Shown piece by piece: positions 11,072 through 11,542 of a stretch of DNA of 64,000 bases; within the stretch, counting starts at the first letter, position 1; each line of letters begins with the position of its first letter. This DNA is from Escherichia coli. GTDB taxonomy: Bacteria; Pseudomonadota; Gammaproteobacteria; Enterobacterales; Enterobacteriaceae. The notes under the pieces are model-generated. The model had not been told where the DNA came from, did no database searches, and was given only the letters and a program-made list of their open reading frames with translations. Made by a program: the position numbers and the translations under genes. The stretch is from assembly GCF_003334405.1 (NCBI RefSeq), contig NZ_QOWM01000003.1; one strand, 5' to 3'.

Positions 11072-11099
11072 TTGACTCATCGCGCCAGGTAAGTAGAAT
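11072..11099 (+). promoter_or_regulatory. sigma70 promoter of the glyW-cysT-leuZ tRNA operon
   Basis: TTGACT(11072-11077)-N16-TAGAAT(11094-11099) with a GC-rich discriminator, about 70 nt upstream of tRNA-Gly. Confidence 0.6.
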
Positions 11100-11172
11100 G
11101 CAACGCATCGAACGGCGGCACTGATTGCCAGACGATAATAAAATCAAGTGATTAACTGATTGCTTGATGAAT

Positions 11173-11248
11173 GCGGGAATAGCTCAGTTGGTAGAGCACG
11201 ACCTTGCCAAGGTCGGGGTCGCGAGTTCGAGTCTCGTTTCCCGCTCCA
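11173..11248 (+). tRNA. glyW: tRNA-Gly (anticodon GCC)
   Basis: 76-nt sequence GCGGGAATAGCTCAGTTGGTAGAGC...TTCCCGCTCCA with cloverleaf features and encoded CCA. Confidence 0.95.
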
Positions 11249-11302
11249 GTTTAAAAGACATCGGCCTCAAGCGGATGTCTGGCTGAAAGGCCTGAAGAAT
11301 TT

Positions 11303-11376
11303 GGCGCGTTAACAAAGCGGTTATGTAGCGGATTGCAAATCCGTCTAGTCCGGTTCGACTCCGGAACGCGCCTCCA
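11303..11376 (+). tRNA. cysT: tRNA-Cys (anticodon GCA)
   Basis: 74-nt sequence GGCGCGTTAACAAAGCGG...GAACGCGCCTCCA with encoded CCA. Confidence 0.95.
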
Positions 11377-11388
11377 CTTTCTTCCCGA

Positions 11389-11475
11389 GCCCGGATGGTG
11401 GAATCGGTAGACACAAGGGATTTAAAATCCCTCGGCGTTCGCGCTGTGCGGGTTCAAGTCCCGCTCCGGGTACCA
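11389..11475 (+). tRNA. leuZ: tRNA-Leu (anticodon TAA), long variable arm
   Basis: 87-nt sequence GCCCGGATGGTGGAATCGGTAGACAC...CGCTCCGGGTACCA. Confidence 0.95.
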
Positions 11476-11517
11476 TGGGAAAGATAAGAATAAAATCAAA
11501 GCAATAAGCAGTGTCGT

Positions 11518-11542
11518 GAAACCACCTTCGGGTGGTTTTTTT
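11518..11542 (+). terminator. rho-independent terminator of the tRNA operon
   Basis: ACCACC-TTCG-GGTGGT hairpin followed by TTTTTTT. Confidence 0.75.

Follow-up and report, generated by a model that had tools for sequence, protein, structure and literature searches.

The stretch of DNA analysed here (a window of 64 kb from an Escherichia coli genome) contains exactly three tRNA genes, which were identified with ARAGORN on the + strand between positions 11173 and 11475 and all of which score above the Rfam RF00005 gathering score of 29. Their order on one strand (Gly(GCC), Cys(GCA), Leu(UAA)) is that of the E. coli glyW-cysT-leuZ operon. Furthermore, pgsA and yecA were found as flanking genes and the sequence between them matches the reference, as is characteristic of this operon. 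The anticodon of leuZ, read from the sequence, occupies positions 11423-11425 in the anticodon loop TTTAAAA (11421-11427). The initial annotation had placed an intact glyW-cysT-leuZ operon at 11072-11542 and had described it as directly flanked by pgsA and yecA; the ARAGORN and Rfam hits and the two open reading frames agree with this description.

Table. Features of the glyW-cysT-leuZ locus (positions refer to the window)
Feature	Position	Strand	Evidence
pgsA, upstream core gene, 182 aa	10473-11021	+	ORF; name from RefSeq annotation of matching genomes
Predicted sigma-70-like promoter (TTGACT, 16-nt spacer, TAGAAT)	11072-11099	+	Pattern scan
glyW, tRNA-Gly(GCC)	11173-11248	+	ARAGORN; Rfam RF00005, 69.1 bits
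cysT, tRNA-Cys(GCA)	11303-11376	+	ARAGORN; Rfam RF00005, 54.0 bits
leuZ, tRNA-Leu(UAA)	11389-11475	+	ARAGORN; Rfam RF00005, 57.7 bits
Putative attB, unoccupied	11420-11552	.	Junction mapping, alignments; single copy in the window
3'ETS-LeuZ, 3' external transcribed spacer of leuZ	11476-11542	+	Identical to K-12
Predicted intrinsic terminator (9-bp stem, UUCG loop, then T-run)	11518-11542	+	Fold
yecA, downstream core gene, 221 aa, intact	11671-12336	+	ORF; name from RefSeq annotation of matching genomes

The predicted promoter matches the consensus at 10 of 12 positions and is the sole such site in 10900-11750. The scan alone proves little, because one site is about what shuffled sequences give (mean 0.7). 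For the predicted terminator, folding revealed a hairpin GAAACCACC-UUCG-GGUGGUUUU at 11518-11539 and a T-run ending at 11542; the fold is marginally better than those of shuffled sequences (z = -1.77). A pattern-based terminator scan of the locus did not list the leuZ hairpin, although folding shows it, probably since the first Ts of the T-run form part of the stem. Both the promoter hexamers and the terminator are identical to those of E. coli K-12, in which a polycistronic glyW-cysT-leuZ transcript is made and a Rho-independent terminator ends the leuZ 3' spacer (PMC6191717). A promoter and a terminator had been noted previously, and the limits given at that time (11072 and 11542) are indeed the first base of the promoter and the last T of the T-run. 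The promoter would drive a single transcript ending at the intrinsic terminator, and processing of this transcript would yield tRNA-Gly(GCC), tRNA-Cys(GCA), tRNA-Leu(UAA) and the 3'ETS-LeuZ fragment. What was read in the window are the sequence signals; transcription and RNA processing would follow the course described in the literature.

The locus agrees with the K-12 glyW-cysT-leuZ operon in its tRNAs, their order, the flanking genes, the promoter hexamers, the 3' spacer, the terminator and the intergenic length. The spacer between pgsA and yecA comprises 649 bp, as in K-12, and the leuZ-yecA distance of 195 bp is the same as well. The window differs from K-12 in this spacer by four substitutions (at 11031, 11033, 11266 and 11587) and by no indels; all four are in non-functional spacer positions, i.e., outside the promoter hexamers, the tRNAs, the 3' spacer and the terminator. 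The stretch from pgsA to yecA is 99.9% identical to that of strain 266917_2 and 98.7% identical to that of K-12 derivatives, and the window therefore originates from a non-K-12 E. coli. Around the locus the GC content is unremarkable (0.49-0.55), and on either side the window shows collinearity with annotated core genes.

Elsewhere in the window, a low-GC stretch (0.34-0.35) is present at 16250-17000, in or by the gap between ftnB (15860-16363) and araF; as it is ~99% identical in another E. coli, it is not strain-specific. Positions 1-1350 belong to the flagellin (fliC) region, which can be aligned with that of O157:H7 only over 174-742 (87% identity), as is expected for the variable H-antigen region; the alignment with strain PCP06101 starts no earlier than position 1089. 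Rfam matches to small RNAs comprise MicL (43761-44068, + strand, 381.9 bits), C0465 (29696-29773, - strand, 111.6 bits) and ES036/CssrF (48004-48046, - strand, 45.5 bits).

No island is integrated at glyW-cysT-leuZ in the window. An occupied site is recognized by an integrase gene adjoining the tRNA gene or located at the far end of the insert, by a direct repeat of the 3' part of the tRNA gene (attL/attR), and by foreign DNA between the tRNA gene and its conserved flank. None of these was found at the locus, and the 3' part of leuZ is single-copy in the 64 kb. Duplicated tRNA 3' fragments, which according to the initial annotation should be sought within 1 kb of each tRNA gene, were searched for in the whole window instead; with up to 3 mismatches allowed, the 24-25-nt 3' end of each tRNA has no further match there (0 expected by chance). 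Using the tRNAs, the 133-bp att block (see below) and the terminator as blastn-short queries, only matches of up to 15 nt were obtained, which is chance level (best E ~0.1-0.2), and no direct repeats involving the tRNAs were detected in 6000-17000. A tblastn search of the window with four integrases from leuZ sites revealed no homologue (best E = 0.74). The claim that the locus is free of an integrase, of direct repeats and of foreign DNA is thus supported by tblastn, by the repeat search and by the K-12 length of the spacer, respectively.

The only repeat touching the locus is a 27-nt match (81% identity) between 11519-11545 and 15420-15446, which might be taken as a trace of a degraded island hidden here, whether in the form of a small piece of foreign DNA, an incomplete copy of the att sequence or the pseudogene of an integrase. 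Such a remnant is extremely improbable, as the spacer has retained the K-12 length with four SNPs and without indels, the tRNA 3' fragments are single-copy and tblastn finds no integrase. Furthermore, yecA, tyrP, yecH, ftnA, yecR and azuC, which separate the two terminator-like sequences, are core genes, collinear and ~99% identical with those of other E. coli. We considered the two 27-nt sequences as an att pair around a 3.9-kb segment and rejected this assignment, because the second copy resembles a terminator hairpin and the intervening genes are collinear core genes. This hairpin (AAACCTGCTCCGGCAGGTTTTTTTGTG) follows the small ORF azuC, shares 81% identity with the leuZ terminator, and has a compensated stem and a T-run. 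We judge the likeness of the leuZ and azuC terminators to be convergence between intrinsic terminators and not an att repeat.

The negative result at leuZ is meaningful because occupied genomes show what an insertion at this site looks like. The contiguous pgsA-tRNA-yecA arrangement is present in 3,782 of 5,426 complete E. coli genomes, and it is interrupted in about 1,644 of them (~30%). In eight sampled non-contiguous genomes, the match breaks at window positions 11541-11552 (query position 1069-1080). With junction-specific queries, ~501 genomes were found to possess an island-type attL junction and ~491 a P2-like integrase-attR-yecA junction, and ~650 occupied genomes match neither of the two queried junction types. 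The initial annotation had referred to tRNA genes as classic integration sites of islands; this view applies here, leuZ being used in ~30% of the genomes, and the status of leuZ as a hotspot, which that annotation did not mention, has to be added to it. Indeed, several papers describe insertions at leuZ, i.e., the Sakai prophage Sp13 (PMC8190617), prophages of O121:H19 (PMC8767318), an integrative element of O145:H28 (PMC7067040) and a leuZ-associated island (island 9) of APEC O78 (PMC4313913).

Two kinds of occupants, P2-like prophages and defence islands with an integrase, can be illustrated with individual genomes. In O157:H7 strain SS TX 313-1, a P2-like prophage remnant of ~21 kb is located at the break, with its integrase gene adjoining yecA. 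In PCP06101 and E8, an island is present whose 401-aa integrase gene adjoins leuZ and whose cargo includes type I restriction-modification genes, DUF262 proteins and Hhe; the E8 island additionally encodes a type-B DNA polymerase protein and a second integrase. A decayed version of the island, 17 kb in size and lacking an intact integrase, occurs in CUVET20-PYO4. Note that IS elements are also among the cargo of the example genomes, and that Hhe is an anti-phage protein. Note also that the type I restriction-modification operon of the leuZ islands contains a gene for a 'YecA/YgfB family protein' (L002:28395-29078, L005:37173-37856), which is located a few kb from chromosomal yecA and has a short DNA match (79%) to window positions 11860-11898. 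In E8, the yecA gene by attR (L007:12072-12272) is annotated as a pseudogene lacking the N-terminus, and its match to the window ends at 11688, which points to a deletion next to the island.

The inserts of 17-26 kb measured in three genomes have, at their two ends, a direct repeat of 124-133 bp that corresponds to the window block 11420-11552. The repeat corresponds to window positions 11421-11544 for the O157:H7 P2-like prophage and to 11420-11552 for PCP06101, E8 and CUVET20-PYO4, and it covers the 3' 55-56 nt of leuZ (starting from the anticodon loop), the 3' spacer and the terminator. The P2-like leuZ prophages (Sp13 of Sakai, PMC8190617; Escherichia phage 520873, Peduoviridae) use the att block of the window, whereas the window itself possesses no prophage, no integrase and one att copy only. 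The leuZ islands (APEC O78 island 9, PMC4313913; the O145:H28 element, PMC7067040) have the same attB as the window; among PCP06101, E8 and CUVET20-PYO4, the two cases measured end to end carry 17-26 kb here, and the window is without such cargo. The block shared with attP, attL and attR is thus present in the window as one intact copy, and 11420-11552 is therefore regarded as an unoccupied attB. Judged by this sequence block, it is a putative attB for leuZ-targeting tyrosine integrases; it would serve several elements of this kind, and in the genome studied here it is empty and bears no scar.

Three free phages, mEp390 (with an annotated attP), Fostie and Pectobacterium phage ZF40, possess an attP next to the integrase gene. 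Their attP sequences match window positions 11420-11541/11549 at 80-89% identity, beginning in the anticodon loop. mEp390 and Fostie are lambdoid, and none of the three phages is present in the window. Their integrases are at most 21% identical to the P2-like and island integrases, and pairwise identity among the three integrase lineages does not exceed 26%. Several other phage records were not accepted as sources of attP. The block match of vB_EcoM-569R10, -720R5, -705R4 and -783R5 is 100%, but the record of 705R4, when opened, proved to be a prophage excerpt including host yecA; the record of Escherichia phage 520873 likewise runs on into the host flank.

Junction mapping in the occupied genomes examined showed that the match of attL to the window extends as far as 11544-11552, and that the leuZ identity of every attR and attP starts at 11420 or 11421. 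The 5' anticodon stem ends with the former position, and the anticodon loop begins with the latter. Within the block, attR copies are identical to the attB of the window, and scattered SNPs are found only in the flank downstream of it. In contrast, SNPs of the element type occur within the block in three of four copies of attL, which is the site joined to the intact tRNA; the attL of PYO4 differs only at the 3' edge. As attR equals attB while attL carries the SNPs of the element, strand exchange appears to take place at the 5' edge of the block. Seen together with the literature, these comparisons would place the crossover in the leuZ anticodon loop. This sublocation is said, going back to Williams in 2002, to be the classical one for tyrosine integrases that target tRNA genes. 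With a crossover in the anticodon loop and an attP block that extends through the terminator, an integrating element would replace the 3' half of leuZ, the 3' spacer with the sponge RNA (see below) and the terminator by its own copies.

Such replacements can be recognized in the sequences. In the attL of E8 (L005:20916-21002) and in the attP of mEp390 (L008:2500-2620) and Fostie (L009), the T-stem GCGGG/CCCGC is changed in a compensatory manner to GTGGG/CCCAC. As this pair change is located in the element-supplied half of leuZ, the corresponding lysogens would express a slightly different, still paired tRNA-Leu(UAA). PCP06101 and E8 have a spacer variant in common, AAACATCAGAAT--AATC.

These variants also bear on the question of whether leuZ has always been free in this lineage. 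An element might have resided here and have been removed by precise integrase/excisionase excision, which would have restored a perfect attB and made the site only secondarily empty. Site-specific excision leaves no scar and is as such compatible with the data; moreover, elements of no fewer than two kinds occupy leuZ in ~30% of the complete E. coli genomes, so that gain and loss are probably frequent. Nevertheless, positive evidence for a past occupant is lacking: the att block of the window is identical to that of K-12 and contains no element-type SNPs (neither GTGGG/CCCAC nor AAACATCAGAAT--AATC nor the GCTAAG variant). The absence of these variants argues in addition against loss of an element through homologous recombination between the 130-bp repeats. 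We therefore regard a former occupant as unlikely. The region is almost certainly the native, ordinary glyW-cysT-leuZ operon of E. coli with an empty attB in leuZ.

The attB block includes 3'ETS-LeuZ, which was not mentioned in the initial annotation (window 11476-11542). As summarized in PMC6191717, which cites Lalaouna et al. 2015, 3'ETS-LeuZ is a sponge that pairs with the small RNA RyhB and lowers the RyhB level; its release by RNase E and the sequestration of RyhB and RybB in vivo are reported there as well (PMC6191717). Between the characterised 3'ETS-LeuZ (Lalaouna et al. 2015, as cited in PMC6191717) and the window there is no sequence difference. The spacer of the window is thus identical to the characterised K-12 sequence, and it is complementary to RyhB. 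A contiguous complement of 12 bp to RyhB nt 35-46 is located at 11507-11518, and only 4 of 1000 shuffled sequences reach this length. An 8-bp complement to the RybB seed is at chance level (923 of 1000 shuffles). Pairing of RybB with 3'ETS-LeuZ was reportedly part of the work by Lalaouna and colleagues. The RyhB and RybB sequences used were confirmed against E. coli genomes and Rfam. Full-length duplex folding of 3'ETS with RyhB or RybB gave unrealistically long duplexes and was replaced by the count of contiguous pairs with shuffles. By analogy with K-12, whose sequence is the same, the 3'ETS-LeuZ fragment of the window would pair with RyhB and would function as a sponge.

Previous work has documented the operon and the sRNA sponge next to its terminator, and integration at leuZ is likewise known. 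A mildly new angle concerns other genomes, in which leuZ elements would swap in their own sponge and terminator while the RyhB core is kept. In fact, across three integrase lineages, every E. coli attL, attR and attP copy examined has the same, unaltered sequence AAGCAGTGTCGT in the core complementary to RyhB, whereas the spacer bases around this core and the terminator stem vary among the element copies. It is conceivable, if rather doubtful, that mobile elements have been selected to preserve the sRNA-buffering function of the host or are able to tune it. If this is true, the window carries the native, un-replaced sponge allele. In any case, the att block 11420-11552 offers a precise test for the occupancy of leuZ. 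The locus, with its free leuZ attB, is of use as a marker when strains are compared, and phages targeting leuZ might land in it.
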